From assembly GCA_038045385.1 (NCBI GenBank), contig JBBSYE010000007.1, positions 44,761 to 108,760 on the forward strand: 64,000 nucleotides of DNA, given 5' to 3'. The stretch comes from Nanobdellota archaeon. Its GTDB lineage: Archaea > Nanobdellota > Nanobdellia > Pacearchaeales > GW2011-AR1. Made by a program: the position numbers and the translations under genes. The stretch's first letter is position 1. Every line of letters starts with the position of its first letter. A model generated the notes under the pieces. The model searched no databases, was not told where the DNA came from, and was given only the letters and a program-made list of their open reading frames with translations. Of this stretch, positions 7,242-59,947 are shown piece by piece.

Positions 7242-8021
7242 ATGCAGATAATAAGTATGTATTTAAAATTAAATGAGGGTATTCTAAGAAAAATAGTCTC
7301 AAAAGCAATCGAAAATTCAGGAAATATTAGAAAATTACAAGATGAAACTGGAATATCAAAAAGTAGTCTTTCATTATATAAAAATGAAAAAAGAGCAATA
7401 AAAGATGAAAAATTGAAATTGCTTCTCAACATCTCGGGAATTAAAATAAAAGATGAGAATATCAAATATAAATTAGAAAATAACTGGAAACAAAAGAAAG
7501 GAGGAATAAACTGTGTTGAAAGTAAAAAAAAGAAAGGAACATTTGAAAATCAGCTAATTTTAGCAAGAATAAATAGTGCAAAAAAACTAAAAGAATGGCA
7601 CAGAAAAATGAAGACCGGACAGCCCGAAAAATACTATGAAATTCAGCATGCGAGATTTAAGAAAGCAGCAGGCAAAAAATTTAAAACTATTTTAGGAATC
7701 TTTGTAAGAAATAATTTAGAAAAAGATATTGCAAATAGGTTAGCTGAAATGAAAATTGACTATGAATATGAACCTATGATAAGAATAGAAGGCAAATGTT
7801 TTTTTCCTGATTTCTTAATAAACAAAAAAATAATCATTGAATGTACTATGTGGAAAGGTTATGATAAAGCAACAAAATTAAAAAATAAAATCAACCTATT
7901 AGAAAAACATTATAAGATATTTGTATTCGTTCCAAAACCTTTATATAAGTACTATCAGCAACTTAATAATTATCTAATATCTGATTTAGATAATATATGT
8001 CCCGGTAGCTCAGCTAGGTAG
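7242..8021 (+). CDS. HTH + PD-(D/E)XK endonuclease-like protein (DUF559/Vsr-like C-terminus); likely start 7257
   Basis: IRKLQDETGISKSSLSLY HTH; EKDIANRL..IDYEYEP..FFPDFLI..IIIEC. Confidence 0.7.
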   Translation: MQIISMYLKLNEGILRKIVSKAIENSGNIRKLQDETGISKSSLSLYKNEKRAIKDEKLKLLLNISGIKIKDENIKYKLENNWKQKKGGINCVESKKKKGTFENQLILARINSAKKLKEWHRKMKTGQPEKYYEIQHARFKKAAGKKFKTILGIFVRNNLEKDIANRLAEMKIDYEYEPMIRIEGKCFFPDFLINKKIIIECTMWKGYDKATKLKNKINLLEKHYKIFVFVPKPLYKYYQQLNNYLISDLDNICPGSSAR

Positions 8022-8087
8022 AGCATTCGGCTGTTACAATTTTTTGTAGAAACCGAAGGGTCGGAGGTTCGAGTCCTCTCCGGGACG
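7999..8087 (+). tRNA. tRNA-Asn(GTT) with 15-nt canonical intron (8037-8051)
   Basis: Acceptor GTCCCGG/CCGGGAC, anticodon stem TTCGG/CCGAA around CT-GTT-A, T arm GGTTCGAGTCC, BHB-like pairing CTGT/GTAG. Confidence 0.95.
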
Positions 8088-8130: not shown

Positions 8131-8796
8131 ATGATATTAGACAAATATGCTCGTGCCGAACATGAACACAAACCAAAAAAAGTAGAAATAGTAATAATTA
8201 TTGCTATCGGTGTACTTCTAATAGCTTCCCTATCCTCTGAAACGATATTTGACATTCCAAGCTATGTCCCTATCATTCTTATCATTGGTTTTATCATAAT
8301 GAAATTCGCCCATATATATCATGAAGGCGGAACAATAATGGAAGATTATGTTTCTCTCGGCGCTTTAATAATTTTTATAATCCTCCATATAATCCTAGGC
8401 GGTGCAATAAATGCAATTCTCGTTACGGTAATTATCTTCATTCTCTTATATTCAACAGGAATAATGATTTGGGTACGTCGCTCATTAAATTCACAAAATG
8501 GAATTCATGTAATTATAAGCTACGTCCTTGCAGTCGGAATGATAATTTTTCTATTTGCAGGAGCTTATTATCAAAACAACGATTTATTCAACAATATAAC
8601 TTCAAATTCTCCACTTACGTTTGAAGAATCTCTTTATTTGAGCGCAATAACATTTACAACAGTTGGCTTCGGCGATATAACTCCTTTAGAAATAAATAGA
8701 CTTTTAGCCTCAATAGAAGCGCTTTTAGGAACTGTTCTAAATATTGCTTTTATGGGTTATATTTTCGCTTCAAATAGGAACAGGTCTCCATATTAA
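8131..8796 (+). CDS. Potassium channel family membrane protein (Ion_trans_2)
   Basis: Selectivity filter TFTTVGFGDITP; multiple TM helices. Confidence 0.9.
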   Translation: MILDKYARAEHEHKPKKVEIVIIIAIGVLLIASLSSETIFDIPSYVPIILIIGFIIMKFAHIYHEGGTIMEDYVSLGALIIFIILHIILGGAINAILVTVIIFILLYSTGIMIWVRRSLNSQNGIHVIISYVLAVGMIIFLFAGAYYQNNDLFNNITSNSPLTFEESLYLSAITFTTVGFGDITPLEINRLLASIEALLGTVLNIAFMGYIFASNRNRSPY

Positions 8797-9866
8797 TGAA
8801 ATCCGTCCTCATCGGTCTTTCAGGCGGAGTTGATTCAGCAGTATCTGCATTATTGCTAAAAAAACAAGGCTATAAAGTAATAGGCGCATTTATGAGAAAT
8901 TTCTCAGATAATAAAAATCTTAAAGGTGAATGCCACTGGGTTGAAGATAAAAAAGACGCAGAAAAAATAGCTTCAATTCTAAAAATTCCTTTACTCACAT
9001 TCAACTTCGAAAATGAATACAAAAGAGACGTTATAGAACCAATGTTCAACTCATATTCAAAAAATCTAACTCCAAACCCAGATACAAACTGCAATCGCTA
9101 CATCAAGTTCCCATTATTGTGGAAAGAAGCACAAAAAAGAGATATAGACTTCATAGCGACAGGCCATTATGCAAAAATTATTAAGAAAAAAAACAAATTT
9201 GAGCTACATCAAGCAATAGACAAAGAAAAAGACCAAACTTACTTTCTCTACAAATTGAAAGAGCAAGACCTCAAGCACACGTTATTCCCAATTGGTAATC
9301 TTAAAAAATCTCAAGTCCGTGAAATAGCAAAAAAAGCCAATCTCCCAGTCTATAACAAAAGAGGCTCTCGAGGAATATGTTTTGTCGGTAAAATGGATAT
9401 GAAAACATTCCTAAAACAAAGAATAAAAGAAAAGAAAGGAATAATAAAAAACCCTGAAGGAGAAATAATCGGCACTCATACTGGCACGATGTTTTTTACA
9501 ATAGGCGAAAGAATAAAAGAAAATGAGGAAATCCATCTAAATGATAGCGCAAGAAATAAAGCAAGCAAAAAATTCTATGTTGCAAAAAAACAAGGCAACA
9601 CTCTTATTGTAGCCCCAGAAAATAATCTCTCTTTAAAAAGAAAGCAATTCATAATCAAAAATCTCTCATTTATTAACAAAAATCAATCCCTAAAAAACAT
9701 TAAAGTCCGCATTCGCCATCGTGGAAATTTAATTTCAGCAACAATAAAAAAAGAAAAAAATCAAATCACTTGCACTTTAAAAAACCCAACACAAGGCATC
9801 GCAGAAGGTCAATCAGTAGTTATATACAAAAATTCAAAAGTTCTCGCCGGCGGAGAAATTAGATAA
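8796..9866 (+). CDS. mnmA: tRNA 2-thiouridine(34) synthase MnmA
   Basis: SGGVDS, TPNPDTNCNRYIKF, ATGHYA, KDQTYFL, SRGICFVG. Confidence 0.95.
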   Translation: MKSVLIGLSGGVDSAVSALLLKKQGYKVIGAFMRNFSDNKNLKGECHWVEDKKDAEKIASILKIPLLTFNFENEYKRDVIEPMFNSYSKNLTPNPDTNCNRYIKFPLLWKEAQKRDIDFIATGHYAKIIKKKNKFELHQAIDKEKDQTYFLYKLKEQDLKHTLFPIGNLKKSQVREIAKKANLPVYNKRGSRGICFVGKMDMKTFLKQRIKEKKGIIKNPEGEIIGTHTGTMFFTIGERIKENEEIHLNDSARNKASKKFYVAKKQGNTLIVAPENNLSLKRKQFIIKNLSFINKNQSLKNIKVRIRHRGNLISATIKKEKNQITCTLKNPTQGIAEGQSVVIYKNSKVLAGGEIR

Positions 9867-10190: not shown

Positions 10191-11102
10191 ATGATAGAAT
10201 CTGTTGATGATGACGAAAAACCCCTCAAGTTAGAGCAACGCGTCCGTCAATTAGATAATGCAAAAAGACCGGCAAAACATATAGCAAGAGAACTATCTGA
10301 ATTATTAGGTGCAAGTAGAAAAACAATTGAGACATATATCGGTGCAAAAAGAAAGGGGTTTAAATCTTTAACAGAAGAAAGAAAAAAAATAGCAAAAGAT
10401 AAAGGATTTTCTTCCTACAATGCAAGAACACTAAAATTGAGTGGATTTACATCTTATATGGAACTCCAAGAATATCAAGCAAAAAAAGCAGGATGGTCTT
10501 CTATTAATGATTATAGACTTTGGTTAGCGACAAATAGAAGAAGTATCGTCAGAGAAGGAATTACATTAGAAAAACAAGCAATCTTCGAGGAATCGCTAGA
10601 ATATTTACCAGAAAATCCAAATATAATTGCAGAATATCCAGAAAATTTAGAATTTGAGAATGAAGAAGTATTAAAAAAAGCAATGCAAAAATTATCAGAA
10701 AGAGAACTTATCATTTTAAATGAAGTTTCAAATCAAAGAACATATAAACAAATAGGCATAAAAATTGGAATAACTAGTGGAAGAGTTGAGCAAATATATA
10801 ACGAATCAATGGAAAAAATATGGTCTAATCTAAGACCAGGCATCCCGTATAAAAAAGAAAGAAGACAAGAGAAAATTGAAGATGGTGAACTTTTATTTGC
10901 ACATCTTATGTTAAAATCTCTACCAAGACCTGAAGGAAGGAAGAAAAGACCAAGAGAAGCATTAAATGAATTAAAAAGGACATATGAAGAAGCATGGGGA
11001 AGAGAAGCGCCAAGATGGATAACTCAAGTAGATAAAATAAAAATGTATCAAAAAAGAATAAAATCAATTCGTGAACGCGTATTTTCTCGTGAAGCTGAAT
11101 AA
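10191..11102 (+). CDS. Protein with sigma-70 region 4 HTH and N-terminal GF(S/T)S repeats
   Basis: AMQKLSERELIIL...RTYKQIGIKIGITSGRVEQIYNESMEKI matches the region 4.1/4.2 consensus. Confidence 0.75.
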   Translation: MIESVDDDEKPLKLEQRVRQLDNAKRPAKHIARELSELLGASRKTIETYIGAKRKGFKSLTEERKKIAKDKGFSSYNARTLKLSGFTSYMELQEYQAKKAGWSSINDYRLWLATNRRSIVREGITLEKQAIFEESLEYLPENPNIIAEYPENLEFENEEVLKKAMQKLSERELIILNEVSNQRTYKQIGIKIGITSGRVEQIYNESMEKIWSNLRPGIPYKKERRQEKIEDGELLFAHLMLKSLPRPEGRKKRPREALNELKRTYEEAWGREAPRWITQVDKIKMYQKRIKSIRERVFSREAE

Positions 11103-11147: not shown

Positions 11148-12230
11148 TTATCTGAATACCTCGATGCCTAAATCAGACATCTCGGAACGCGCTCCAGGAG
11201 CAGGCTCGCGGTCCTTTCCAAGAACGTAAGGAGATTTAACGCCAGTCATTATTGTAATAACTCGCACTTTTCCTCCGAAATCCTTGTTAATTCTCGCACC
11301 CATGATAACCTGCGCATCTGGACTTAAGTTTTCAGTAACCAACTGGCCAACGCCAGAGAATTCATCAAGCTTAAAATCAGGACCGCAAGTAATATGGATT
11401 AAAGCACCAGTCGCACCACGATAATCAACATCCAACAAAGGGTGAGTCAATGCCTGCCTTACGGCTTCGTCAACTCTCATTGATGTATCAGACTCTCCTA
11501 CTCCAATAACTGCTACGTGACCGCCTTTCATAACTGCTGAAACGTCCGCATAGTCTAAGTTAATCAATGAAGGCAAGGTAATTGTTTCCACAATTCCTTT
11601 TATCATTGTACTGACCAGCTCGTTCGCAACTGCGAAAGCCTGTTCCATAGGCAAATTACCAGCAATATCTACAAGTCTGTTATTATCAATAACGATTGCT
11701 GTGTCAACAACCTCACGAAGTTCCTGCAAACCAAATTCTGCCTTGTCTAATCTCGCTCTCTCACATTCAAAGGGCATAGTGACTACCGCAATAACGACAG
11801 CACCGCTCTCTTTAGCAAGTTGCGCAATGACAGGAGCACTTCCAGTTCCAGTTCCTCCACCCATACCAGCAAGAATGAAGACCATATCGGCATTACCGAC
11901 AGCTTTCTTCAAATCAGATATCGCCTCTTTTGCAGCCTCTCTACCCTTTGAAGGTAAACCGCCACATCCAAGACCTCTCGTCAATTCCTTACCAATAAGA
12001 AGCTTCTCATCAGCCTTAGTGATACTAAGGTGTAAAGCATCAGTGTTAACGCCATAAATTGTAGCGCCACTGATTCCTTTATTGAAAAGCCAGGTTATCG
12101 TGTTACATCCTGCACCTCCAGCACCAACTACTTTGATATTCGCCTTTCCAGCACGAAGTTCGTCGAAGTTAATACTATAAGCACTCGCATTCTGTATCGC
12201 CTCTTTTGCAAAATCTAAAACCATTTTCAT
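11148..12230 (-). CDS. ftsZ: Cell division protein FtsZ
   Basis: VGAGGAGCN, GMGGGTGTG tubulin signature, INLDYADV; GGAGG RBS upstream. Confidence 0.97.
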   Translation of the reverse strand: MKMVLDFAKEAIQNASAYSINFDELRAGKANIKVVGAGGAGCNTITWLFNKGISGATIYGVNTDALHLSITKADEKLLIGKELTRGLGCGGLPSKGREAAKEAISDLKKAVGNADMVFILAGMGGGTGTGSAPVIAQLAKESGAVVIAVVTMPFECERARLDKAEFGLQELREVVDTAIVIDNNRLVDIAGNLPMEQAFAVANELVSTMIKGIVETITLPSLINLDYADVSAVMKGGHVAVIGVGESDTSMRVDEAVRQALTHPLLDVDYRGATGALIHITCGPDFKLDEFSGVGQLVTENLSPDAQVIMGARINKDFGGKVRVITIMTGVKSPYVLGKDREPAPGARSEMSDLGIEVFR

Positions 12231-12370
12231 AACCTCCTTTCAATCTTTATCATTCCCGCTAACAATCCAAGTTTAAATATTTGATTGTTCCACACAACAA
12301 AGATAGTCAGAATAATCTCTCTCTAGCAAACCTTCATCGCCCTTATATAATGACTCACTTAACTAAAAAA

Positions 12371-13003
12371 ATGGATCAAAATAACTATAATTTTGTAACA
12401 TTTGAACAAGCAATTCAAGACTATTTAGCCGGAAATGAAAAAGCAATAGAACCAATATCAAAATTATGTGAAATTTATTCAAAAAGAATAGCAAGTAGAT
12501 ATGGAAAAGTGTGTTTTGAAGACGTTGCTCAAGAGAGCCTATTAAAGATACATAAAAACGCACATACCTACGACCAAAATCAACCAGCAAAACCTTGGAT
12601 AATTTCAATAGTACGAAATACTCATTTTGATATGGTAAAAAAAGATGAGCGAGACAAAAGACGCAGAATTTCTGCATTAAAAAGAATGGATACAAGCAGA
12701 AGATTTCAAGGAGATAGCAAAGATACCCTTGAGGATATCACAAACAGAGAAGAGTTTATTGAAGAATTAGCAGATAGAGAATATAATCAAGAAGAAATTG
12801 CAAAAATAACACGCATTCTTGAAACTATGAACAATCCCGCTTCAAAGACTTTCAAAGACCATCATTATAACGGCCTATCTTACGAGGAAATAGCAAGAAG
12901 AGAAAATATACCTTTAGGCACAGTAAAAAGCAGAATAAATTTCACAAAAAAGAGAATAATTAAAATTGATACTGAAAATTTAAAAAATAAAAAACAATTT
13001 TAA
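12371..13003 (+). CDS. ECF-type sigma-70 family protein (regions 2 and 4)
   Basis: FEDVAQESLLKIHKNAHTYDQNQPAKPWIISIVRNTHFDMVKK; GLSYEEIARRENIPLGTVKSRIN; TTATATAA at 12343-12350. Confidence 0.88.
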   Translation: MDQNNYNFVTFEQAIQDYLAGNEKAIEPISKLCEIYSKRIASRYGKVCFEDVAQESLLKIHKNAHTYDQNQPAKPWIISIVRNTHFDMVKKDERDKRRRISALKRMDTSRRFQGDSKDTLEDITNREEFIEELADREYNQEEIAKITRILETMNNPASKTFKDHHYNGLSYEEIARRENIPLGTVKSRINFTKKRIIKIDTENLKNKKQF

Positions 13004-13054
13004 TATATCAATAATGTGAAATTAAACTTATATACCGATAAATCAACTACTAAT

Positions 13055-13714
13055 ATGCTCGATAATCATGCACTGCATGGAGATTCTGCTACATTAGATG
13101 AAGGCTTAAAGGCTGGAGATTTGTATAGGGAAGCAATATATAACCATATTGATGGGGATGTTAGGGCTATGGAAATAATCTCCGACTTCTGCATGAAAAA
13201 AGCAAAAATGATAGTTAAAAATTATAGCAATATTGATTATCAGGACATTGCCCAAGAAGCATTATTGCAAGTGTATAAATCGTTACGTAGTTATGATGCA
13301 AGAAAATCCGCAGGCCATGTCTGGCTTGGACAAATTGTTACAAACAAATACCGAGATGCCTTAAGAAGAGATAAAGTTAGACCTAAAATTTCTTTAGATG
13401 CTAAACTTCGCAGTAGAACAAATGAAAAAACGGAAATGTCGCAAATGGACTCATTATTTTCTGACGAAATTGAAGGATTAGACAAATTAATGGAAACTGA
13501 AGAAATAGAAGGAGTAGAAGAAAAAATAAACGCTGAAATAGAAGAAGAAAAACCAATAAACAGAATAGCTAGAATGAAGCTCTTTCATGGGACAAAATAT
13601 GAAGACATTTCAAGGTCTCTAAAAATTCCAGTAGGAACTATAAAAAGCACATTACATCGCAAAATGAAAAAAATAAAGAAACTATTTCCAAGCGAACGTC
13701 TTTGCCATCAATAA
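13055..13714 (+). CDS. ECF-type sigma-70 family protein (regions 2 and 4)
   Basis: YQDIAQEALLQVYKSLRSYD..HVWLGQIVTNKYRDALRR; GTKYEDISRSLKIPVGTIKSTLHR; TTATATA at 13028-13034. Confidence 0.88.
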   Translation: MLDNHALHGDSATLDEGLKAGDLYREAIYNHIDGDVRAMEIISDFCMKKAKMIVKNYSNIDYQDIAQEALLQVYKSLRSYDARKSAGHVWLGQIVTNKYRDALRRDKVRPKISLDAKLRSRTNEKTEMSQMDSLFSDEIEGLDKLMETEEIEGVEEKINAEIEEEKPINRIARMKLFHGTKYEDISRSLKIPVGTIKSTLHRKMKKIKKLFPSERLCHQ

Positions 13715-14683
13715 AGGAAATAAAATAGTTGCATCCCCAAAAACCTTAATATTTTTTCCTTTGGAAGTCAACTTTCCCCAAGAAACTGCTTCGTCAGGCA
13801 TTGCACCCGCATCAGAACCATCATACTCTGAAGCAGTATTAATGTAAACTCCATAATCTGCACCATTACGTAGCATATTTGCATTTAATATCGCATGTTT
13901 AGCAACTCCAGAACCTAAAATCAAAACGCCAGATTTTTTTAGCCCAATTGTAGCATTATTCAACTCTCTAGTGTCCGCAACTATATCAATTACCATATCT
14001 GGGCGTTTGAAAGAAAAGAAATAAATATTATCTCCTAAAGCCCCATCAGTAATTGCAGGACAAAATATTGGAATTTTATTTTTAAAAGCCCAATAGCAAA
14101 TACTTTCCTTATTGTTTATTCTTTCTCCCAAAGCCCAAATTAATTTACTAGGAGTCAAGATAGCTCCAGCCTTCTTACCCTCTAGATATAAATCTTCTAA
14201 AATTGGCTGAACAAATTTTTCAAATTCGACATATCTATTATTCGGAACAAAAATATTTCCAATTCTATTTATCCCCTTTTCCCTCAATTCAGCCCCAGAA
14301 GCACGAAAATCTCCAATATAGAAATCACCAAGACACTTAATTATATCTTCCTCAATAGCTCCTGCAGTTGTAACAATCACTCCTATCTTGCGATGTTCAA
14401 CTAAATATCTAAAACTCTCCCGCAATCCAGAACTAACCATATTACTCGTATATCCCAAAAATATGAACGCCTTCTCTTTTATCATCTCATTCACAATTCC
14501 AATAGCTTGAGAAAAATGCGTAGCCTGATAACCCATACTTGAGAAACTATCAATTATTTTATCATAATTAACGCCTTGATTAAAATCATAACCTTTTACT
14601 TTCACGCCCTTAGCTTCAAAGCTCTTCCTAAGCAAATTTTTCCTAGCTATTTTTTCATTATCCATTACAAACAAAAATAACAA
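13682..14683 (-). CDS. dys: Deoxyhypusine synthase (likely start MDNEK, 14665)
   Basis: GYTSNMVSSGLRE, GINRIGNIFVPN, DGSDAGAMPDEAVSWGK. Confidence 0.95.
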   Translation of the reverse strand: MLFLFVMDNEKIARKNLLRKSFEAKGVKVKGYDFNQGVNYDKIIDSFSSMGYQATHFSQAIGIVNEMIKEKAFIFLGYTSNMVSSGLRESFRYLVEHRKIGVIVTTAGAIEEDIIKCLGDFYIGDFRASGAELREKGINRIGNIFVPNNRYVEFEKFVQPILEDLYLEGKKAGAILTPSKLIWALGERINNKESICYWAFKNKIPIFCPAITDGALGDNIYFFSFKRPDMVIDIVADTRELNNATIGLKKSGVLILGSGVAKHAILNANMLRNGADYGVYINTASEYDGSDAGAMPDEAVSWGKLTSKGKNIKVFGDATILFPLLMAKTFAWK

Positions 14684-14695
14684 CCCCTTTTAAGA

Positions 14696-14932
14696 CTATC
14701 TCTTTGCAATTTTCCATAAATCATCAAAAAACACAGAAAAAGAAGTGCTAACCGAAGAAGAAAATATATGGACACAAGTCAAATCTTTGCTATAAGAAAA
14801 AATGAAAACATTATCATCAATAATCATTATAGAAGAAGGCGTAAATTGCGCTATTTCTCTGACTTCAGTATATCCTATACGTTTAAAAAAACTCCAATAA
14901 TTCCAGTTTTCACAACCTCGGAAATTATAGAA
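14696..14932 (-). pseudogene. Start-less C-terminal remnant of a TrmB-family regulator
   Basis: ...TEVREIAQFTPSSIMIIDDNVFIFSYSKDLTCVHIFSSSVSTSFSVFFDDLWKIAKR* resembles the end of the TrmB ORF at 38766 (FEKLWKIAKK). Confidence 0.65.
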
Positions 14933-14945
14933 TTATTATAAAAAT

Positions 14946-15971
14946 CTATTCCGCCACGCCAAGTCGCTTCCTCACAACCTCTAAATCTCGCTTCATAAAA
15001 TGCCCTCCAGCAGCAGGAATATGTCCTCCGGCGGAAGCATTCTCCAAATCCTTTAAAGCACTCTGAAGCAAATCAACCATGCTTTGAGCCATATTTTGTC
15101 GTCTAGCACTAACAAAACAATACATCCCCTCATTTCTAACAAGAATATAAGTCTTATCTTGCTCACTTCCAGAAACGATACTACTCACTAACCCTCCGAC
15201 TTTAAAATGCGGACTGAACTCCCAATACCATCCTCCCGGAATCTTTCTCCTCTCACTAACGAATCTCTTAAGCAATATATCCAACTCATCCTGAACCTTC
15301 TCCGCAAAAGGCTTAATGTTTCCAATTTCTCCAAAATTATTTCCAATAGAATCATAAACTCTCTTTATATTATCCTTAAAATAAACTAAAGCAAGAGACA
15401 AAGTCCATTGTAAACTCCAAAAGGAGCTTTGACGTAAAGTTAAACTGGAAAACTTCTGCCCATAATTATCAAAAGTCTTAATCATCCATTCAGAATTTTT
15501 CTCATAACAAAAATCTGAAATGCAAGCACAAGCAACAATCCAGTCACAGCTTGATAAATCCATTACTTCAGAAAACATCTCATAACAAAAATAAGCGGCA
15601 CAATAACCATTCTCGCATTTCAAATATACAGTTCTAGGCGAATTCTTATCACTAGGAACCATATGATGATCCAAAACTAAAACTTCAGCAAAGCTTTCAA
15701 GAGCCTCTAAAAGACCATTATCATGTCCTAAAAACAAATCTGTAAAAACAACTTTGGTAATTCCTTTCTCTCTTAACTCCTCCGCTAAATCCAAATTAAG
15801 CTCATCATAATTAACAAAATAAATATTTTCTGTCTTGAAAAATTTATTCGCAATAAATGCGCTAGCTAATCCATCTAAATCTATATGACTAACAAGCGCA
15901 ACATTATCTTCCTTGCTTACTCCATTAACATATTCAAGAAATCTCTCATTTGTTCCAATATCTAGATTCAT
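14946..15971 (-). CDS. DHH/DHHA1 phosphoesterase
   Basis: HIDLDG, TDL, LDHH, AGGHIPAAGG. Confidence 0.9.
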   Translation of the reverse strand: MNLDIGTNERFLEYVNGVSKEDNVALVSHIDLDGLASAFIANKFFKTENIYFVNYDELNLDLAEELREKGITKVVFTDLFLGHDNGLLEALESFAEVLVLDHHMVPSDKNSPRTVYLKCENGYCAAYFCYEMFSEVMDLSSCDWIVACACISDFCYEKNSEWMIKTFDNYGQKFSSLTLRQSSFWSLQWTLSLALVYFKDNIKRVYDSIGNNFGEIGNIKPFAEKVQDELDILLKRFVSERRKIPGGWYWEFSPHFKVGGLVSSIVSGSEQDKTYILVRNEGMYCFVSARRQNMAQSMVDLLQSALKDLENASAGGHIPAAGGHFMKRDLEVVRKRLGVAE

Positions 15972-16672
15972 GCCTTCTCCAAAATTTCAGCCCTTATTCC
16001 CTTTTCTGTACAAAGACTAACAAAGCTCTCTGCATCCTCTCTTGTTCCCACAACAGAGCCATAATGCATCGGTATCGTTAAATATGGCTTAAGTAAACTT
16101 GCAGCCTCAACCGCCTCATCAACATCCATCACATACATTCCAGAAACAGGCAAAAGAGCGATAAGCTTCTTACCTTTCTTTCCATATCCTGTAAGTCTTT
16201 GCATTTCCGGAATAAAATCGCTATCTCCTGCGTGATAAAAAATCACATTCCCAATTTTAATCAAATACCCAAAATATCCTTCTGATTTAGGATGAAAAAC
16301 TTTCTTGCTCTCCACATCTCTATATTTGTTCAAGTTATAAGCTGGAACTGCCTCAATCTTAATATTACCAAATTCAACTTCATCATTAACCTCTATCGGT
16401 TGCACCTCAAGGTTTTCCACTTTCATAACATTACTCTGAATATGTGCAGGCCCTATAACGATAGTCCCTTTCTTAGCAATCTTCTCCATATCTTTAACAC
16501 TACAATGATCCGAATGTTCATGAGTTATCAAAATCAAGTCTACCGGCTTGATATCAGAAACAACTTGATAAGGGTCTATAGCCATTCTCATATCTCCCGC
16601 ATCTAGAATAAAACCAGAGTGCCCAAGATATTCTATTTTGATACCATCAATATCCATAAAAAACACCAGCAA
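15968..16672 (-). CDS. MBL-fold metallo-hydrolase
   Basis: YLGHSGF, THEHSDH, YHAGDS, IPMHYG. Confidence 0.9.
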   Translation of the reverse strand: MLVFFMDIDGIKIEYLGHSGFILDAGDMRMAIDPYQVVSDIKPVDLILITHEHSDHCSVKDMEKIAKKGTIVIGPAHIQSNVMKVENLEVQPIEVNDEVEFGNIKIEAVPAYNLNKYRDVESKKVFHPKSEGYFGYLIKIGNVIFYHAGDSDFIPEMQRLTGYGKKGKKLIALLPVSGMYVMDVDEAVEAASLLKPYLTIPMHYGSVVGTREDAESFVSLCTEKGIRAEILEKA

Positions 16673-16693
16673 GACTAACTTTTAAAGATAACG

Positions 16694-17980
16694 CTAGTCA
16701 GAAAAACCCTCAACTTTCTTAGCAAATTCAAAAAGTCTCTTTTCTTCTCCTGAAGCACAAATAATCTGCATTCCCACAGGCAATCCATTAAGCTTCCCAA
16801 TAGGCAAGGACATAGCACAAACGCCCCCAAGATTAGCAGGTATTGTCAACATATCAACAATGAAAAGATCTTCAGCCTTTGGTCGAGTATTGCGTTTCCA
16901 TGGCAATATAGGCATAGTAGGGCAGATGATACAATCTACACTCCTAAAGACTTGGTTAAAAGAATCTTTAATCTTATTTTTCACTCCAAGAGCTTTTTGA
17001 TAATATCTTCCCTTGAACTCTGCCTTGCTTATCTCACTTCCCCCAAAAATTCTTCTTAAAACTTCTTCTCCAGCACTTTCCTCAATCTTAATACCATAGC
17101 GCCTACCATCAAGCCTTCTACTAGCAGAAAAAAATTCAGTCCAAACAATTGGATGATAAGCCTCAATCCCCAATTCAGATCCATTAATCTCCACCACTTC
17201 AGAAGACAGCTTTAACTTCCTAGTGAGCTTATCAACAAATTCATCAACAAAACTCTGCACTTCGCTATTAACTCCAGCCATCTTCATAATTCCTATTCTA
17301 TCTACATTTTTCTCTTTACTCTTTCTGTCAAAACTTCTCGAGTCCCGCTCATCTCTTCCAGAAATAACCTCAAAAACTTTCTCGGCACTTTCAACATCTC
17401 TAGCAATAGTCCCAATCTGATCCAAGCTCATCGACAAATCAATCAATCCATATCTAGAAACAGCCCCATAACTAGGCTTCAAGCCAACAACGCCACAACA
17501 AGATGCTGGCACGCGAATAGAGCCTCCAGTATCACTTCCAAGAGCAACATCACAAAAGCCAGCAGCAACAGCAGCCGCACTTCCTGAACTAGAACCTCCA
17601 GGCACAAATCCTAAAGCGGCTGGGTTTTCGGTAGCCCCAAAAGCACTATTCTCGCCACTCCATCCACAAGCAAACTCATCACAATTAGTCATTCCGATAA
17701 TTACCCCATCTTCTTTCTTTATTCTCTCAATGACAGTCGCATCATAACTGGATTTATAGCTCTCAAGCGTCTTTGAAGCACAACTAGCTTTCAAACCTTT
17801 AACATTAATATTACTTTTTACCGCAATTACCACGCCTGCAAGCTTACCCTTCTTTTTCTTAGCATCTATCGCTCTAGCTTCCTCAATCAGACTCTGATTA
17901 AGCTCCAAAAAAGAATTTATCTTCCTATCTTCCTTTTTTATCTTATCAAGATATTGCTTTACCTTTACCTCAACACTCAT
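16694..17980 (-). CDS. gatA: Asp/Glu-tRNA amidotransferase subunit A
   Basis: Amidase signature GGSSSGSAAA, LGSDTGGSIRVPA. Confidence 0.93.
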   Translation of the reverse strand: MSVEVKVKQYLDKIKKEDRKINSFLELNQSLIEEARAIDAKKKKGKLAGVVIAVKSNINVKGLKASCASKTLESYKSSYDATVIERIKKEDGVIIGMTNCDEFACGWSGENSAFGATENPAALGFVPGGSSSGSAAAVAAGFCDVALGSDTGGSIRVPASCCGVVGLKPSYGAVSRYGLIDLSMSLDQIGTIARDVESAEKVFEVISGRDERDSRSFDRKSKEKNVDRIGIMKMAGVNSEVQSFVDEFVDKLTRKLKLSSEVVEINGSELGIEAYHPIVWTEFFSASRRLDGRRYGIKIEESAGEEVLRRIFGGSEISKAEFKGRYYQKALGVKNKIKDSFNQVFRSVDCIICPTMPILPWKRNTRPKAEDLFIVDMLTIPANLGGVCAMSLPIGKLNGLPVGMQIICASGEEKRLFEFAKKVEGFSD

Positions 17981-18018
17981 AATTCTTAAACAAAGAACTC
18001 CTATAAAAGCATATCGCC

Positions 18019-18348
18019 CTAGTAGTTATCTTCTTCCTTAGAATCAAAACTCTCTTCATTAATTAGAATAAGCGCCTGTCTTAATTTCTCAGGTCTCTGT
18101 TTTAATAAGACTTCAATTTTCTCCCTTCTTGGAGCAGACAAATCAATCTTAACTCTAACAAGTTCAATAACCTTATCCAAAATCCTATTATCAAGAGAAC
18201 TTATCTTTCCGCTAATCTCGCTACCAAAATCGCTCTCTTCCTCAATTTCGCCCTCGTCAAGCTCGTCAAACTCTTCTTGAGCTTCAACTTTCTTGTTAAC
18301 TTTCTTCTTTACAGAAGATTTTCTAGTAGATGTTTTCTTCATATTCAA
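18019..18348 (-). CDS. Hypothetical protein, basic N-terminus followed by acidic stretch
   Basis: KKTSTRKSSVKKKVNKK then EEFDELDEGEIEEE. Confidence 0.6.
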   Translation of the reverse strand: MNMKKTSTRKSSVKKKVNKKVEAQEEFDELDEGEIEEESDFGSEISGKISSLDNRILDKVIELVRVKIDLSAPRREKIEVLLKQRPEKLRQALILINEESFDSKEEDNY

Positions 18349-18405
18349 AAGTCAATTTTTTCATTTAAAAACCTTGCCATAAGGCGAAATTAGCTCAAAA
18401 ATCAT

Positions 18406-19236
18406 TTATATTTCTTTGATGTATTCAATTAAACATCCCGGGGAGACCCATTTCTCGTCGGCATAAACATCTTTTCCTATATATTCTTCCCAATCACTAG
18501 CAAGACGTTTTATTTTCTGCTCATAAATTGGCTTTAAAGAGTCATCCAAATAATCAAATGGACAATATTTAGTCACTCCTTGCCCTCCTTTCCAAACGGC
18601 AAGTTCAACCATGGCGACCTCATTATTGAAAGTTTTTCTCGGGGCAGCATCTCCAACAATATCTCCAGCCTTCACAATATCTCCATTCTGAACTTTAAGA
18701 TTAACAACATGCTCAAATGAAACTATAAAATCAGATCCTTCTGGATAAAAATTTACACCCCAATCATTAGTATGCTCAAAAAATACAACATCTACTCTTC
18801 CTCCAACAGGAGCTCTAACGTCAGTTCTCAAAGGTACATGAAACCAATATTCTATGTTTCTACTTGAGGGCTCTCTTTTTAATTGCCCTTCTGCCCCAAA
18901 CTCAACAAAAACCCAATCATTCAAAATATTTTCATCTTCAAAAAGAAGTTTTTTAGTAAATATCAAATCTCCTGCAAGATTTCTCGTCTTGTCCCATTGC
19001 CCAATATTAACCCCAAGTCCTTGAAGAGCAAATCCCATTGAGATTTCAGCAGTCCCAACATCCTCAATAGCTTCATTAATAATCTCATTTTCTTCAATTG
19101 TCTGCTCTTCGAGCGCACCAGAATTATACTCTGCATCTTGATTATTAACAACATTATCTCCTTTATCAACAAAAAATAAAAACCCTAATAAAAGAACTGC
19201 ACAAACGGCAATTACAATCACCAAGATAACCTTCAT
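18406..19236 (-). CDS. Membrane-anchored M23/LytM-fold protein, probably catalytically degenerate
   Basis: N-terminal TM; VRAPVGGRV, FEHVVNLKVQNGDIVKAGDIVG, CPFDYL; no HxxxD or HxH. Confidence 0.7.
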   Translation of the reverse strand: MKVILVIVIAVCAVLLLGFLFFVDKGDNVVNNQDAEYNSGALEEQTIEENEIINEAIEDVGTAEISMGFALQGLGVNIGQWDKTRNLAGDLIFTKKLLFEDENILNDWVFVEFGAEGQLKREPSSRNIEYWFHVPLRTDVRAPVGGRVDVVFFEHTNDWGVNFYPEGSDFIVSFEHVVNLKVQNGDIVKAGDIVGDAAPRKTFNNEVAMVELAVWKGGQGVTKYCPFDYLDDSLKPIYEQKIKRLASDWEEYIGKDVYADEKWVSPGCLIEYIKEI

Positions 19237-19266
19237 CTCTTCAAGAAGTAATTAGAAGTTAAATAT

Positions 19267-19773
19267 CTATCCAACAATATTCCCGTCACCATCAAAATCC
19301 ATATCTCTCTTCTTAGTTAATTCTTCTGGAACACGATACTCAACCCATCTAACTCTCTTCTTTTCAATAGTTTCCTTTAAGTTTCTCTCATGCTCATTTA
19401 ATTTAGCCTTTCCAGATTTAACTTCAACAAAAACAACCTCATCAATCTTCTTCTCATCCATTCCTTTGAAAACAATAAAATCAATTGGCTTGCCTATAAA
19501 ACGACATTCAGTCGGCAAATAATCAAAATCCGGCAAATAAGGCGCAAGTTGTTCTGAAAATTGTCCGCCCAATACCGCGCGAGATTTAGCAATCGCATCT
19601 TTTCTATATTGAGGCATTAAATCATTCTCCCATTCCCCATGTTTTCTACTAGCGCCAATTCTCTGCCCAATAAAAAATGCAATGAAAACCGCAATAAGAG
19701 CAATAATCAAGAAAATAATAATAGTCAAGTCAGCCATATCACCACTCGATCTTCTCAACATCTTTCTGCTCAT
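19267..19773 (-). CDS. Membrane-anchored Holliday junction resolvase-like endonuclease (Endonuc_Holl)
   Basis: SRAVLGGQFSEQLAP, FIGKPIDFIVFKG, FVEVKSG. Confidence 0.88.
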   Translation of the reverse strand: MSRKMLRRSSGDMADLTIIIFLIIALIAVFIAFFIGQRIGASRKHGEWENDLMPQYRKDAIAKSRAVLGGQFSEQLAPYLPDFDYLPTECRFIGKPIDFIVFKGMDEKKIDEVVFVEVKSGKAKLNEHERNLKETIEKKRVRWVEYRVPEELTKKRDMDFDGDGNIVG

Positions 19774-20008
19774 AAACGATCTCTTTTAACTCATAGAAAG
19801 AAATGCTCTCTTCAGTCTGATCGTTAAAATATCTAATTTGATAATCTTTATCCGTCTTCGGATCGAATAGTTCTATGGCCATCTCTTTTGTCTGTCCATG
19901 ATCAATAAGAACATAATGTGAATCAACTTCATAACTATGCCCATCAATCTTCATCTTATCTCCCTTTACAATTTTCCCAATCGGCTTAGACGCTTTAATG
20001 GTTACCAT
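19739..20008 (-). CDS. Hypothetical small beta-rich protein
   Basis: Coupled to gatC and the downstream gene. Confidence 0.65.
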   Translation of the reverse strand: MVTIKASKPIGKIVKGDKMKIDGHSYEVDSHYVLIDHGQTKEMAIELFDPKTDKDYQIRYFNDQTEESISFYELKEIVYEQKDVEKIEW

Positions 20009-20232
20009 GAAGCTTTCTCCGCAATAATAAAATCCTCATTCTTATTCGGCGCATTATCAAACATTATTTCCTTGAATTTAGAATCACATTTATCTCCCTT
20101 TCCCTCGATACGAGTAGAATCAACTTCAACTTGATCGTGAACTATCTTACTCTCTCCAAGAGACTTACCAAATCTCTCAAGAATTTCATGTGCCTCTTTT
20201 CTAATCTCTTCCCTTCGTTGTTCACTTAACAT
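20002..20232 (-). CDS. gatC: GatC-like amidotransferase subunit
   Basis: IRKEAHEILERF...FKEIMFDNAPNKNEDFIIAEKASW; gatA/gatB in the window. Confidence 0.75.
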   Translation of the reverse strand: MLSEQRREEIRKEAHEILERFGKSLGESKIVHDQVEVDSTRIEGKGDKCDSKFKEIMFDNAPNKNEDFIIAEKASW

Positions 20233-20277
20233 AAAATAAAAGATAAAAGTCAGTTAATAAATTTAACTTTCTTCACT

Positions 20278-20838
20278 TTATCTAGAACTTCCAAAACTCA
20301 AGTTTATTACTGCCGGAAAATAAGAAGGATCTTTAGAAGCTCCTAAAGCAAACAAAGCAAACTTCTCAAAAGATTCAGAAAGAGAAAGTCTTGGTTTCAA
20401 GGCATATTGCACAACACGATCGCCATCAAAACATCCTCCACTAACAATTCTATCACTAACTTTTCTAGGATAAAAATATTCTCCGCTGATTTCGGCAACT
20501 CCATTAAATTGACTAGCAACTGCAAGATAATCTAATAAAATAGATCTTTCCTTATCGGCTAAATCTCCTCCGAAATCATTCGTAAAAGCTAACAAATCTA
20601 TCTCCTTGTACTTCAAATCACCATTTTCAACTACCGAGCCCATTAAAGCAACATCTGTATTAATTTCATTGAACCTATTGATTATGGAATTTACTCTAGG
20701 AACATCCAAAGGCCTAAGAAGTTCAGGCAATCTAAACAATTTCTCTTCAGTCATTAAAATTCTACTCTCTTTAATTTGCCCTTCAGGAAACGATGCGCCT
20801 TTGAAAACTCGAATCATAAAAACCAAACAATATTGCAC
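20278..20838 (-). CDS. Hypothetical protein, possible Pol-beta-like nucleotidyltransferase fold
   Basis: ALMGSVV...EIDLL (GS..D/E-x-D). Confidence 0.45.
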   Translation of the reverse strand: MQYCLVFMIRVFKGASFPEGQIKESRILMTEEKLFRLPELLRPLDVPRVNSIINRFNEINTDVALMGSVVENGDLKYKEIDLLAFTNDFGGDLADKERSILLDYLAVASQFNGVAEISGEYFYPRKVSDRIVSGGCFDGDRVVQYALKPRLSLSESFEKFALFALGASKDPSYFPAVINLSFGSSR

Positions 20839-20851
20839 TTTAAAAATCTTC

Positions 20852-22177
20852 TCAAGGAGTTATTCTATCTCTATCTCTTGGGAACATCGTAGCCTCACGA
20901 ATATTATCCAAACCACATAAAAGCATAGTCATTCTTTCAAGTCCTATAGACCAACCGCCATGAGGTGGCGCACCAAATCTAAAACTATCAATATAGTCTT
21001 TAAAATGCTCAGGATTCAATCCTTTTTTCTTAATACGCGAAATAAGCAAATCGGGCAAATGAATTCTCTGTCCCCCGGAACTTATTTCCAATCCCTTATA
21101 GATTGCGTCAAATCCTTCCGAATATTCCGCATTTTCCTTTCCATCTTTAGGCATTATATAGAAAGGCTTACAATTAGCAGGCCATGAATGAACAAATAAA
21201 ATAGTATCGGGAAATAGTTCTCCCAATTTCTTCTCAGCTTCAGGGTTCAAATCATCGCCAATCTCAATCTTCAAGCCATGCTTCTTTAGCAAATGAATAG
21301 TCTCATCATAATGAATATATTTAGCATCCGGCACTTTCAGCTTTACTCCAAGAATCTCTAAATCTCTTGCATTATGACTCAAAACTTGAGAAATAATATG
21401 TTTAACAACTTCTTCTTGATGCTTCATTACAACCATCTGATCCGCAAAAGCCATTTCAATATCCATCTGCCTTATCTCATTTATATGGCGAACAGTATTA
21501 TGCTTTTCAGCTCTCCAAATAGGACAAATCATGCAAGTTTTTTCCATAGAACAAGCAAGCATCTGCTTATACAATTGTGGACTCTGCGCCAAATAAGCCT
21601 TCTTCTCAAAATATTTTACTTCAAATAAATCCGTTCCACCTTCAGAGGCCGCGCTGATAACGCAAGGAGGTTGCATCTCAATAAAACCCTTCTCGTGAAA
21701 ATGCTCAAGAAAAGCCCTAGGGATTGTGCTTTGAATTCTAAATATCGCCCTAGTTCTAGAACGATGAAAATCTAAAAATCTATAATCAAGTCTCTTCGGT
21801 AATTCAGTCTTTGAAAAATCACTAGTATCAATTGGCAACTGCTCTCCGGCCATTCCAACTACGTGAAAACTCTCAGGAACAATCTCACGTCCTCCAGAAG
21901 CCTTATCACTCTTCTGAATTTTCCCGCGAATAATCACAGCACTCTCTCTATTCACATTACCCATAGCCTTCAAGACTTCCTCAGGAACTCCGCCCTTGAA
22001 TCCTACAACTTGAATCTCTCCTTTAGTATCCCTAACAATTACGAATCTTATTTTACCAAGGTCACGAATCTCATAAACCCATCCCCCTATAGTCATCATA
22101 CGACCTTGATCTTTCGCACTTATCGAAGATATTTCCGCTCTCTCGCTTTGAAACTCACTAAAGTTCATATCCCACAT
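20852..22177 (-). CDS. aspS: Aspartyl-tRNA synthetase (archaeal type, probably non-discriminating)
   Basis: LAQSPQLYKQ, WRAEKHNT, EISSGGQRIH, FPRDRDRITP. Confidence 0.95.
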   Translation of the reverse strand: MWDMNFSEFQSERAEISSISAKDQGRMMTIGGWVYEIRDLGKIRFVIVRDTKGEIQVVGFKGGVPEEVLKAMGNVNRESAVIIRGKIQKSDKASGGREIVPESFHVVGMAGEQLPIDTSDFSKTELPKRLDYRFLDFHRSRTRAIFRIQSTIPRAFLEHFHEKGFIEMQPPCVISAASEGGTDLFEVKYFEKKAYLAQSPQLYKQMLACSMEKTCMICPIWRAEKHNTVRHINEIRQMDIEMAFADQMVVMKHQEEVVKHIISQVLSHNARDLEILGVKLKVPDAKYIHYDETIHLLKKHGLKIEIGDDLNPEAEKKLGELFPDTILFVHSWPANCKPFYIMPKDGKENAEYSEGFDAIYKGLEISSGGQRIHLPDLLISRIKKKGLNPEHFKDYIDSFRFGAPPHGGWSIGLERMTMLLCGLDNIREATMFPRDRDRITP

Positions 22178-35177: not shown

Positions 35178-35292
35178 TGGCCCTACGAGGAATCGAACCT
35201 CGCTCACCCGGTCCCTTCAGTCTTTCTTTCCAATTTCTTTCCCAAAGAAAGCCTTCCGAAGCCGAGTATTCTATCCGATAAACTATAGGGCC
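35178..35292 (-). tRNA. tRNA-Arg(TCG) with 43-nt canonical intron (35213-35255)
   Basis: Acceptor GGCCCTA/TAGGGCC-A, anticodon stem CTCGG/CCGGG around CT-TCG-G, BHB helix CTTC/GAAG, T arm GGTTCGATTCC. Confidence 0.95.
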
Positions 35293-46277: not shown

Positions 46278-46844
46278 CTATTTCTTATTTGCAATTCTCT
46301 TTAAAACTTCTTTAATATTCTTGTTCAGCTGTTCCATAGCATCTTCAAGTTGAGCCTTATTTTTAGTTCCAGTACAGACAAGCTTTCCATTAGAGAAAAG
46401 AAGAAATGTGGCAGTCGGGTTATCTAGTTTGTAAACAAGCCCAGGAAATTGCTCTGGCTCATATTCAGTATTCTCAAGTTCCAACGCTAAAATATTAAGA
46501 TTCAAATCAACATTAATAGTTCCAGAAGCAACAATATTCTGAACAGTTATCTTAGGAGTATCAGTAATCTTAACGCCAATCTTCGCTAACTGCTTGATAA
46601 CTTGAGCAATAACTTCCTTAACTTGAGCAATACTCTTAGTTCCAGTACAAACAAGATTTCCAGAAGAAAATACAAGAACCGCTGATTTAGGCTTCTTCAC
46701 TCTCAAAACAAGCCCTGGAAACTGCTCGGGATTATACTCAGTATTATTATGAGTCTTCGCAAGTTTAGTCAAAGACACGGGCTTCCCTAATGAAGAAGTA
46801 GCAACGATATTTTGTATTGCAAGATCAGATTTGGAGCTAGCCAT
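46278..46844 (-). CDS. tbp: TATA-box-binding protein
   Basis: Two repeats NIVA..EY(N/E)PEQFPGLV..FS(S/N)G.LVCTGTK. Confidence 0.98.
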   Translation of the reverse strand: MASSKSDLAIQNIVATSSLGKPVSLTKLAKTHNNTEYNPEQFPGLVLRVKKPKSAVLVFSSGNLVCTGTKSIAQVKEVIAQVIKQLAKIGVKITDTPKITVQNIVASGTINVDLNLNILALELENTEYEPEQFPGLVYKLDNPTATFLLFSNGKLVCTGTKNKAQLEDAMEQLNKNIKEVLKRIANKK

Positions 46845-53450: not shown

Positions 53451-53705
53451 TTACTTCTTTAAGAGAGAAGCAAACGCACTAGCATCCTTATTTATCGCAG
53501 AAACTGCATCAGCAACTGCCTTTCTAATAGTTCCAGAACTCACTTGAATCTTCATAACTAGGGGCTTAGAAGGGTGATTTCTTCTCCAAGCAGCAAACTT
53601 AACGCCCTGCTCATTCAAATAAACCCTAATTATCTCCGCTATTGTAGAATTATCAATATTAAATTCAACTTCATCCTTTTCCTGTTTAACTATCTCAATA
53701 TTCAT
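53451..53705 (-). CDS. rpoL: RNA polymerase subunit Rpo11 (RpoL)
   Basis: TIAEIIRVYL, GVKFAAWRRNHP. Confidence 0.8.
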   Translation of the reverse strand: MNIEIVKQEKDEVEFNIDNSTIAEIIRVYLNEQGVKFAAWRRNHPSKPLVMKIQVSSGTIRKAVADAVSAINKDASAFASLLKK

Positions 53706-59270: not shown

Positions 59271-59947
59271 TTCTTCTTTGCTTTCCCCTTTGACTTCTTA
59301 ACAGGCTTCTTTATGGTTTTTGCCAATAACAACTTCTTAGCTTTCATTTTTGCAGATCTCTCAGCTTTCGCCTTAACAGCAGCTCTTTTAGAAGCTCTTG
59401 CCCTCAAAGAAGCATTCTTCCCACTTACCTCTCCAAATTCAGAACTAACAATCTCCAACTGACTTCTAGCCTTGATAATTTGCCTTTCAAGATCAGCAAT
59501 TAATTCTGCCGGTTCTCTTAACTGCAAAACTTCTCCGCATTCTGGACAAGCAAAATTAGCCAATAATGCCTGCTCTTCATTCATCTCAACATCGCAATTC
59601 ACACAATGATAATGCCTCTCCGAAGTTCTAATTTTCAGCTGATTTTCAAGCTCCGCAATATTTTTTCCAATAGTTCTTTTTAGGCTTGCAAAAGATTTCT
59701 CAACATCAAGAGTCCAATAATAAGTATACCATCCGCCATTCTTTCTATCTTTCTTTCCTACAAAGCTAACAAGCCCCTCATCAGCAAGTTTGTAGAGTAT
59801 ATTTCTGGTCTGATTAATATTCAAACCAAGTTTTTTAGCGATAATAAATTCGTTAACATTCTTTTTTCCATAAAGAAGATCTATTATCGGACTTGCAGTT
59901 GGGTTAGCTATAACGCCCACAAGATCCTTCAAAAGCTTAATTTGCAT
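59267..59947 (-). CDS. tfe: Transcription factor E alpha with Lys/Ala-rich tail
   Basis: INQTRNILYKL, GWYTYYW, CVNC..FACPECG. Confidence 0.9.
   Translation of the reverse strand: MQIKLLKDLVGVIANPTASPIIDLLYGKKNVNEFIIAKKLGLNINQTRNILYKLADEGLVSFVGKKDRKNGGWYTYYWTLDVEKSFASLKRTIGKNIAELENQLKIRTSERHYHCVNCDVEMNEEQALLANFACPECGEVLQLREPAELIADLERQIIKARSQLEIVSSEFGEVSGKNASLRARASKRAAVKAKAERSAKMKAKKLLLAKTIKKPVKKSKGKAKKK

Follow-up and report, generated by a model that had tools for sequence, protein, structure and literature searches.

The 64,000 nt of DNA analysed here (the window) come from the genome of a Nanobdellota archaeon and harbor, in the interval between the genes ftsZ and dys, two tandem genes for sigma-70 factors of the extracytoplasmic function (ECF) type. 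They are named sigA and sigB in the following, as are their products. Sigma factors define transcription initiation in bacteria, and archaea are by the textbook free of them. The window belongs to a contig of 113,679 bases, and the genome comprises 783 kb in 8 contigs with about 940 genes at ~89% completeness. The organism is a small DPANN archaeon of groundwater origin; relatives of its deoxyhypusine synthase (Dys) and of its RNA polymerase subunit Rpo1 are titled Candidatus Pacearchaeota, Woesearchaeota or Nanoarchaeota archaeon. Below, G000 denotes this genome and other G-numbers related genomes, while L-numbers stand for loci, P-numbers for protein database matches and X-numbers for sequencing runs; the contig prefixes C2, C4 and C5 refer to other contigs of G000. 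The sigma locus comprises the following elements.

12343-12349, plus strand: TTATATA promoter element of sigA, 28 nt before the ATG at 12371
12371-13003, plus strand: sigA, a 210-aa ECF-type sigma-70 family protein (Pfam, TIGR02937, AlphaFold2, Foldseek)
12401-12694, plus strand: sigma2 domain of sigA, residues ~11-108
sigA residues 110-138: disordered linker
12788-12997, plus strand: sigma4 domain of sigA, residues ~140-209
13028-13034, plus strand: TTATATA promoter element of sigB, 27 nt before the ATG at 13055
13055-13714, plus strand: sigB, a 219-aa paralogue of sigA (Pfam, TIGR02937, AlphaFold2), with sigma2 at residues ~18-108 and sigma4 at residues ~166-210

Both proteins pass the Pfam cut-offs of 24 bits for Sigma70_r2 (PF04542) and 25.7 bits for Sigma70_r4_2 (PF08281), sigA with 32.5 and 35.3 bits and sigB with 35.3 and a marginal 26.0 bits. 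Likewise, the family model TIGR02937 (cut-off 42.9 bits) is matched with 60.0 bits by sigA and 54.1 bits by sigB. In phmmer searches against the PDB, the two proteins gave full-length alignments to sigmaE of E. coli, AlgU, SigW and SigH of M. tuberculosis. Alignment-based AlphaFold2 models reached a mean predicted local distance difference test score (pLDDT) of 78 for sigA and 81 for sigB, with confident sigma2 and sigma4 domains (pLDDT 80-97 for both domains of sigA, 80-96 for sigma4 of the two proteins) and a low-confidence linker. A Foldseek comparison of the sigA model with the PDB yielded 23 matches (E<=1e-3); those listed at the top are all sigma factors, ECF proteins first. None of the other Pfam sigma domains, including region 1.1 and region 3, was matched in sigA or sigB, so the architecture is one of two domains. 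A defined ECF subgroup is not reached, the best NCBIfam matches being SigY (61.6 bits, cut-off 194), SigW (58.8 bits, cut-off 209) and Sig70_bacteroi1 (56.2 bits, cut-off 126.4). The two paralogues are 27-28% identical.

The sigA open reading frame (ORF) has possible starts at 12281, 12350 and 12371, of which the last is the likely one, backed by the homologue P0002 with its N-terminus at the equal residues; for sigB the possible starts are 13016 and 13055, and coding likely begins at 13055. The first-pass annotation of this DNA, made from the sequence alone, had claimed two tandem ECF-type sigma-70 genes with regions 2 and 4.2, and the profile searches bear this out. Its span of 12343-13714 contains both genes, with the correction that 12343 is the first base of the sigA TATA box and not the start of a gene. 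A genome-wide search at E<=0.1 gave no match to zf-HC2, the only anti-sigma family searched, and no small ORF was seen between or after the two genes.

The promoter elements of both genes are of the kind used by the host. Genome-wide, 196 of 600 long ORFs have a TATA-like heptamer that begins 30 to 27 nt ahead of the first ATG, whereas elsewhere about 1-12 were counted per 2-nt bin; this peak is the signature of leaderless mRNAs. Since the boxes of sigA and sigB begin at -28 and -27 and thus at the native position of this genome, each gene has its own host-type promoter. The earlier statement that an archaeal TTATATA precedes each ATG, as in native genes, is supported.

Sigma factors being a bacterial hallmark, and the nearest Atlas clusters of the two proteins being bacterial ECF clusters, bacterial DNA could have been stitched or binned into an archaeal contig, but this artefact is refuted by contigs assembled separately from public groundwater runs. 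Run X6 carries no flag as a possible source of the assembly and provided three contigs with 0 differences that cover 11652-12815, 12946-13509 and 13543-14155 and bridge the ftsZ/sigA, sigA/sigB and sigB/dys junctions. From run X2, which may be the source, a single contig of 2642 bases covers 11629-14270. Among the runs listed as containing this stretch, none is recorded as RNA. With every junction bridged by contigs from other runs, a chimera, which had been called unlikely at first sight, is excluded. Moreover, the sigma pair shares its contig with the genes for TBP, TFE, rpoL, dys and ftsZ, the GC content around the locus is uniform at 0.33-0.37, the gene order recurs in the genomes of at least six other species, and both genes have archaeal promoters. 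sigA and sigB are real and intact genes on an archaeal chromosome, with the sigma-70 fold of ECF (group 4) factors.

The genome is equipped with the archaeal initiation machinery. As the first-pass annotation had it, tbp, tfe and rpoL are found in the window.

46308-46823, minus strand: TBP with two repeats (PF00352, 99.7 and 98.3 bits)
53472-53669, minus strand: rpoL, RNA_pol_L_2 match (PF13656, 29.1 bits, cut-off 27)
59630-59935, minus strand: TFE, TFIIE-alpha domain match (PF02002, 60.6 bits)

Among the control genomes, matches to the TBP profile were confined to 4 archaea. One gene for TFB lies on contig C4, so that the TBP/TFB/TFE set of the genome is full. A single locus with an Rpb1 domain was detected genome-wide, within an operon of the order rpoB, 119-aa ORF, fused rpoA'A'', nusA and S12. 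The large subunit of RNA polymerase matches the archaeal A' model with 976 bits versus 307 bits for bacterial beta', and the second subunit matches the archaeal B model with 1288 bits. No bacterial RNA polymerase core was found in the genome, which is 89% complete. The fusion of A' and A'' into one protein of 1143 aa, encoded within C5:4154-11191 (locus L030), is observed at equal length in about 120 relatives from Pacearchaeota and Nanoarchaeota, with identities of 74-90%. The 119-aa ORF between rpoB and rpoA is without a Pfam match.

The genes next to the sigma pair are arranged as follows.

10191-11102, plus strand: 303-aa ORF with a sigma-70 region-4 helix-turn-helix only, at residues 164-210 (Sigma70_r4, 25.2 bits, cut-off 24.1)
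11148-12230, minus strand: ftsZ (Pfam Tubulin 150 bits, FtsZ_C 107 bits), divergent from sigA
13682-14683, minus strand: dys, deoxyhypusine synthase (Pfam DS, 381 bits), tail-to-tail with sigB

The last 33 nt of sigB overlap the 3' end of dys, an overlap already noticed in the first reading. This neighborhood is shared with related species. The same-genus genomes G003, G004, G005, G006, G007 and G008 each have a single sigma-like ORF that meets dys tail-to-tail, as do the loci L064 and L078. The full order dys-sigma-ftsZ was found in G000, G007, L053 (G004), L055 (G003), L064, L078 and L084 (G008). In six of the 35 Dys loci of species representatives, the ORF directly after dys is sigma-like. 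The sigma gene occupies this fixed slot between dys and ftsZ in related species and is thus vertically inherited there. At L066, dys and ftsZ are adjacent, about 110 bases apart, with no sigma gene between them; a genome that keeps the dys-ftsZ arrangement in this way indicates that the sigma gene is dispensable. No dys-adjacent sigma gene was detected in G001 and G002, both of which are fragmented genomes. A comparison of the ftsZ-sigma intergenic regions of G000 and G007 revealed no shared operator, with the ftsZ-proximal half conserved and the sigma-proximal half not.

Orthologues could be collected through their neighbor rather than by their own sequence. A search of the genome contigs with sigA only found no relative, and the second scan therefore used Dys; the alignment of the syntenic sigma family has no conserved stretch usable for searching. 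Two further observations concern other genomes. In G035, which belongs to another family of the same order, two tandem ECF-like ORFs of 179 aa each (C1:26212-27238) are located about 7 kb from dys. The Dys at locus L068 is 68% identical to that of this archaeon and stands in a record titled Candidatus Omnitrophota bacterium, which is probably an archaeal contig mis-binned in an Omnitrophota metagenome-assembled genome.

In the protein databases, the closest matches other than the proteins themselves are P0002, 73% identical to sigA, and P0122, 48% identical to sigB, both encoded on one contig of 7,367 bases. The remaining matches are at most ~36% identical, those among them that carry names are bacterial ECF sigma factors, and no bacterial protein exceeds this value. 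Judged by these identities, sigA and sigB are not a recent bacterial import. Near-identity to one bacterial genome, named in the first-pass annotation as an observation that would speak against its proposal, is not seen.

A tree of 86 proteins, in which the rows tagged bacterial are unlabelled database matches and only some of them bear bacterial names, gave the topology ((sigB,P0122),(G007,(sigA,P0002))) with SH-aLRT support of 97-99. sigA and sigB arose from one sigma gene by a tandem duplication specific to this lineage, and the duplicate is kept in at least two lineages. The topology further implies that the duplication predates the split of G007 and that the B copy was later lost there, unless long-branch effects misplace sigB. 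The other syntenic archaeal sigma proteins form very long unresolved branches with lengths of up to 3 substitutions per site; from the 86 proteins, a bacterial donor group cannot be named, and a single origin is neither shown nor excluded.

The sigma gene diverges many times faster than its neighbors. Apart from the near-identical pair from G005 and G006, the syntenic sigma proteins are 14-39% identical, compared with 68-83% for Dys among genus members and 82-91% for FtsZ of genus members and the window copy. All 12 syntenic sigma ORFs are open. The sigma gene of G007 and those of the window are saturated, with amino-acid identities of 38-41%, and the orthologues of G005 and G006 are the only pair close enough for counting the ratio of nonsynonymous to synonymous substitution rates (dN/dS). 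With 7 nonsynonymous and 3 synonymous changes, the sigma gene of this pair has a dN/dS of ~0.65, a value of very low power as it is based on 10 differences. The corresponding values are 0.02 for dys (2 nonsynonymous, 23 synonymous) and 0.18 for a DHH gene (~90 and ~101). Among the population variants listed, some fall in ftsZ and dys and none in the sigma genes. Between L048 (G006) and L049 (G005), from two close species, the synonymous rate dS forms a mosaic, with 0.03 in the sigma gene, 0.11 in dys and 0.65 in the neighboring DHH gene. This pattern suggests that the sigma-dys segment has recently recombined.

The residues retained under this divergence were mapped on the basis of a bacterial structure. 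Fang et al. 2019 (PMC6648896) describe that sigma2 of sigmaE binds the beta' clamp helices via a conserved polar surface, that F64 and W73 form pockets for the flipped -10 bases, and that N80 acts as melting wedge. In the HMMER alignment, F64, W73 and N80 correspond to Y67, W76 and N83 of sigA. The patch on helix 2.2 consists of D51, Q54 and E55 (D-x-x-Q-E), and the region 4.2 helix reads G183-T-V-K-S-R188. All mapped residues are kept in sigA, and all but R188, which is replaced by T, in sigB. Across the 12 syntenic proteins, Q54 and K186 are found in all, Y67 in 11, and D51 and E55 in 10 each. By contrast, several residues are missing from more distant orthologues: W76 is present in 8 of the 12 (F or Y in the others), and N83 and, in region 4.2, E173 and I174 in 5 each, while W76, N83, E173 and I174 are 92-100% conserved in 70 other database matches, mostly bacterial where named. 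Thus, this archaeal lineage holds on to the fold and to a few residues of the surface, while several positions that hardly vary in bacteria have been released. sigA is the most canonical of the syntenic members and sigB a diverging duplicate.

The pair does not stand alone in this genome. With TIGR02937, four of its loci exceed the cut-off and one falls short of it. In total, it has five sigma-related genes. Besides sigA, sigB and the 303-aa ORF next to ftsZ, these are the following.

C2:9573-10265 (locus L001:1372-2064), plus strand: 230-aa protein with regions 1.2 and 2 (RpoS model, 137 bits, residues 9-115)
C5:19050-19898, minus strand: 282-aa ORF with region 4 only (Sigma70_r4, 40.8 bits), ~8 kb downstream of the RNA polymerase operon

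The 230-aa protein on C2 matches the Pfam domains r1_2 and r2 and has an intact Y-A-x-W-W-I-R melting motif. Its likeness to bacterial sigma factors is far greater than that of the ECF pair. It resembles sigma factors of groups 1-3 and not ECFs, the region-4-only proteins are without sigma2, and all of them share sigma-70 domains with sigA and sigB. The 303-aa and 282-aa ORFs are paralogues of each other (32% identity, E 8e-17) and are otherwise without assigned domains. The gene on C2 lies between genes for a winged-helix protein and a metallophosphoesterase. Counting G000, TIGR02937 is matched above cut-off in 21 of 41 related genomes. The 30-residue matches to this model in frames of 310-330 aa, present in many relatives, are weak; they were not counted as sigma factors. 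The example in G000 (C4:15926-16018) lies inside the TFB gene.

What the ECF pair does in a cell with an archaeal polymerase was considered in the light of these data. The reading we favour, with a probability of roughly 45%, is that sigA and sigB are domesticated sigma-fold proteins acting as sequence-specific transcription regulators within the archaeal TBP/TFB/TFE system. The helix-turn-helix of sigma4 would bind duplex DNA near promoters, and sigma2 would add a further contact, either with DNA or with a protein. As the genome encodes no bacterial core enzyme, the canonical sigma cycle is not expected. This absence favours a role as regulators, as do the TATA promoters of the sigma genes themselves, the dispensability of the gene at L066, the decay of the melting residues in many orthologues and the lack of a detected alternative promoter class. 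The last point comes from a search of 554 upstream regions for dyads (two 4-mers separated by 14-19 nt), with 20 shuffles as the reference. Enriched were only the dyads formed by TATA box and ATG and AT-rich palindromic dyads of divergent promoters; no GC-containing, ECF-like dyad indicative of a bacterial-type bipartite promoter was enriched by this crude method, which a small regulon would escape. The expression "domesticated sigma-like proteins", chosen in the first-pass annotation, is a fair description.

Several results weigh against a role as regulators. The same dyad search in the 554 upstream regions found no DNA target motif for sigA or sigB. sigA keeps every mapped canonical residue, which a pure helix-turn-helix regulator would not need. 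The invariance of Q54 and K186 and the near-invariance of Y67 in the syntenic proteins suggest that a conserved partner surface has been retained. Finally, the dN/dS of the sigma gene, with its very low power, is compatible with weak constraint.

The main rival, a possible if unlikely account, is that the proteins are true sigma-like initiation factors of the archaeal RNA polymerase, serving a sigma-dependent class of promoters beside or atop TBP/TFB/TFE. Sigma2 would dock on the clamp coiled-coil of Rpo1, a structural homologue of the clamp helices in bacterial beta', and capture the melted non-template DNA, with an element further upstream being read by sigma4. This account draws on the patch of helix 2.2, the equivalents of F64, W73 and N80 as well as the recognition helix of region 4.2, all kept in sigA and nearly so in sigB, and on the persistence of Q54 and K186 in proteins that evolve as fast as the 12 syntenic ones. 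It is further consistent with the presence of five sigma-related genes among ~940, including the RpoS-like protein with its melting motif, and with the Rpo1 clamp coiled-coil (residues ~211-305), which is invariant in 42 relatives. However, the sigma genes themselves use TATA promoters, the genome has the full TBP/TFB/TFE set, many syntenic orthologues have lost residues of the wedge and the pocket, L066 manages without the gene, and the dyad search, within its limited power, gave no bipartite non-TATA motif. A complex prediction of sigA sigma2 (residues 1-112) with the Rpo1 clamp region (residues 1-345) scored 0.00 in both runs, for which controls were not folded, and speaks neither for nor against this account. 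In a bolder form, to which we would give only a small chance, the ECF pair and the RpoD/RpoS-like protein of C2 would be working sigma factors for the archaeal RNA polymerase, and Pacearchaeota-like DPANN archaea would have a hybrid bacterial and archaeal mode of initiation. If so, the very fast divergence would reflect a rapid rewiring of promoter specificity.

A still smaller chance is left to the view that the genes are relics with little or no function, left from an old transfer of a bacterial gene and drifting towards loss. Their extreme divergence relative to the neighboring genes and the dN/dS of the G005/G006 pair could be taken in this sense, as could the empty slot at L066 and the sigB orthologue P0122, which has a degenerate C-terminus and only r2 in its precomputed Pfam annotation. 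Relics would hardly be expected to remain open in 12 of 12 syntenic copies despite branches of up to 3 substitutions per site, to preserve key motif residues, well-placed promoters and domains that fold confidently in AlphaFold2, or to be retained as duplicates in at least two lineages. Very improbable, and purely inferential, is the idea that the proteins are sent as effectors to a bacterial partner or host in order to redirect its RNA polymerase: the residues for binding a bacterial core and for melting are kept though the genome is without such a core, but neither N-terminus looks, by eye from the translations, like a signal peptide or membrane segment, and there are no adjacent secretion genes. 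The data do not separate the three functions proposed at first, and nothing found supports the exported effector.

Some features of the window lie apart from the sigma genes. From 14001 to 22000, GC skew is about -0.3 to -0.4 over long stretches with genes on the minus strand, probably reflecting a purine bias of the coding strand. Matches to a tRNA model of 71 positions were obtained at 7999-8087 (plus strand, 89 nt) and at 35178-35292 (minus strand, 115 nt), and the latter may contain an intron. At 8796-9866 on the plus strand, a tRNA 2-thiouridylase of the MnmA type is encoded (tRNA_Me_trans, 247 bits). MnmA is typically a bacterial enzyme; at the related locus L058, mnmA directly adjoins dys.

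An archaeal lineage that keeps intact sigma-fold genes at a fixed chromosomal slot, duplicates them, has them behind native promoters and in some copies preserves every residue used in core binding and promoter melting amounts to a natural experiment on mixing two initiation systems. The locus provides candidates for testing the sigma fold on an archaeal RNA polymerase, namely the canonical sigA, the diverging sigB and a series of single-copy orthologues. Should the proteins prove to be regulators of the ordinary DNA-binding kind, they would represent one more family of bacterial-type regulators recruited by archaea and be of modest interest.

Compared with bacterial ECF factors such as sigmaE/RpoE of E. 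coli, AlgU of P. aeruginosa, SigW of B. subtilis and SigH and SigL of M. tuberculosis, the two proteins agree in a size of about 200 aa, in the presence of sigma2 and sigma4 and in a matching fold, and sigA also in the D-x-x-Q-E patch, the aromatic residues of the -10 pocket, the wedge asparagine and the G-T-V-K-S-R helix. In the models, the linker, with about 30 disordered residues, and the N-terminus seem extended. Unlike those, sigA and sigB reside in a host with an archaeal RNA polymerase only, have TATA promoters of the leaderless type and lack a detected zf-HC2 anti-sigma factor; they belong to no defined ECF subgroup and show at most ~36% identity to any protein outside one close relative.

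The occurrence of such genes in DPANN archaea as such is not new. Castelle et al. 2021 (Front Microbiol, PMC8204110), the only paper on the subject returned by a full-text literature search, in which no paper assigning a function was found, report genes classified as sigma-70 (fam00359) in DPANN and particularly prevalent in Woesearchaeota. Mis-binning was excluded there by trees of the proteins encoded alongside, anti-sigma factors were not found, and the controlling mechanism was regarded as unclear. The locus described here resembles that family in having a sigma-70-classified gene on a DPANN contig, with TBP, TFE, rpoL and dys alongside, and in the lack of a detected anti-sigma factor. As far as the available text goes, that study is a census at the level of families, and to it the present analysis adds the tandem ECF paralogues, the dys-ftsZ slot, the TATA promoters, the state of the functional residues and the very fast divergence of the sigma genes.

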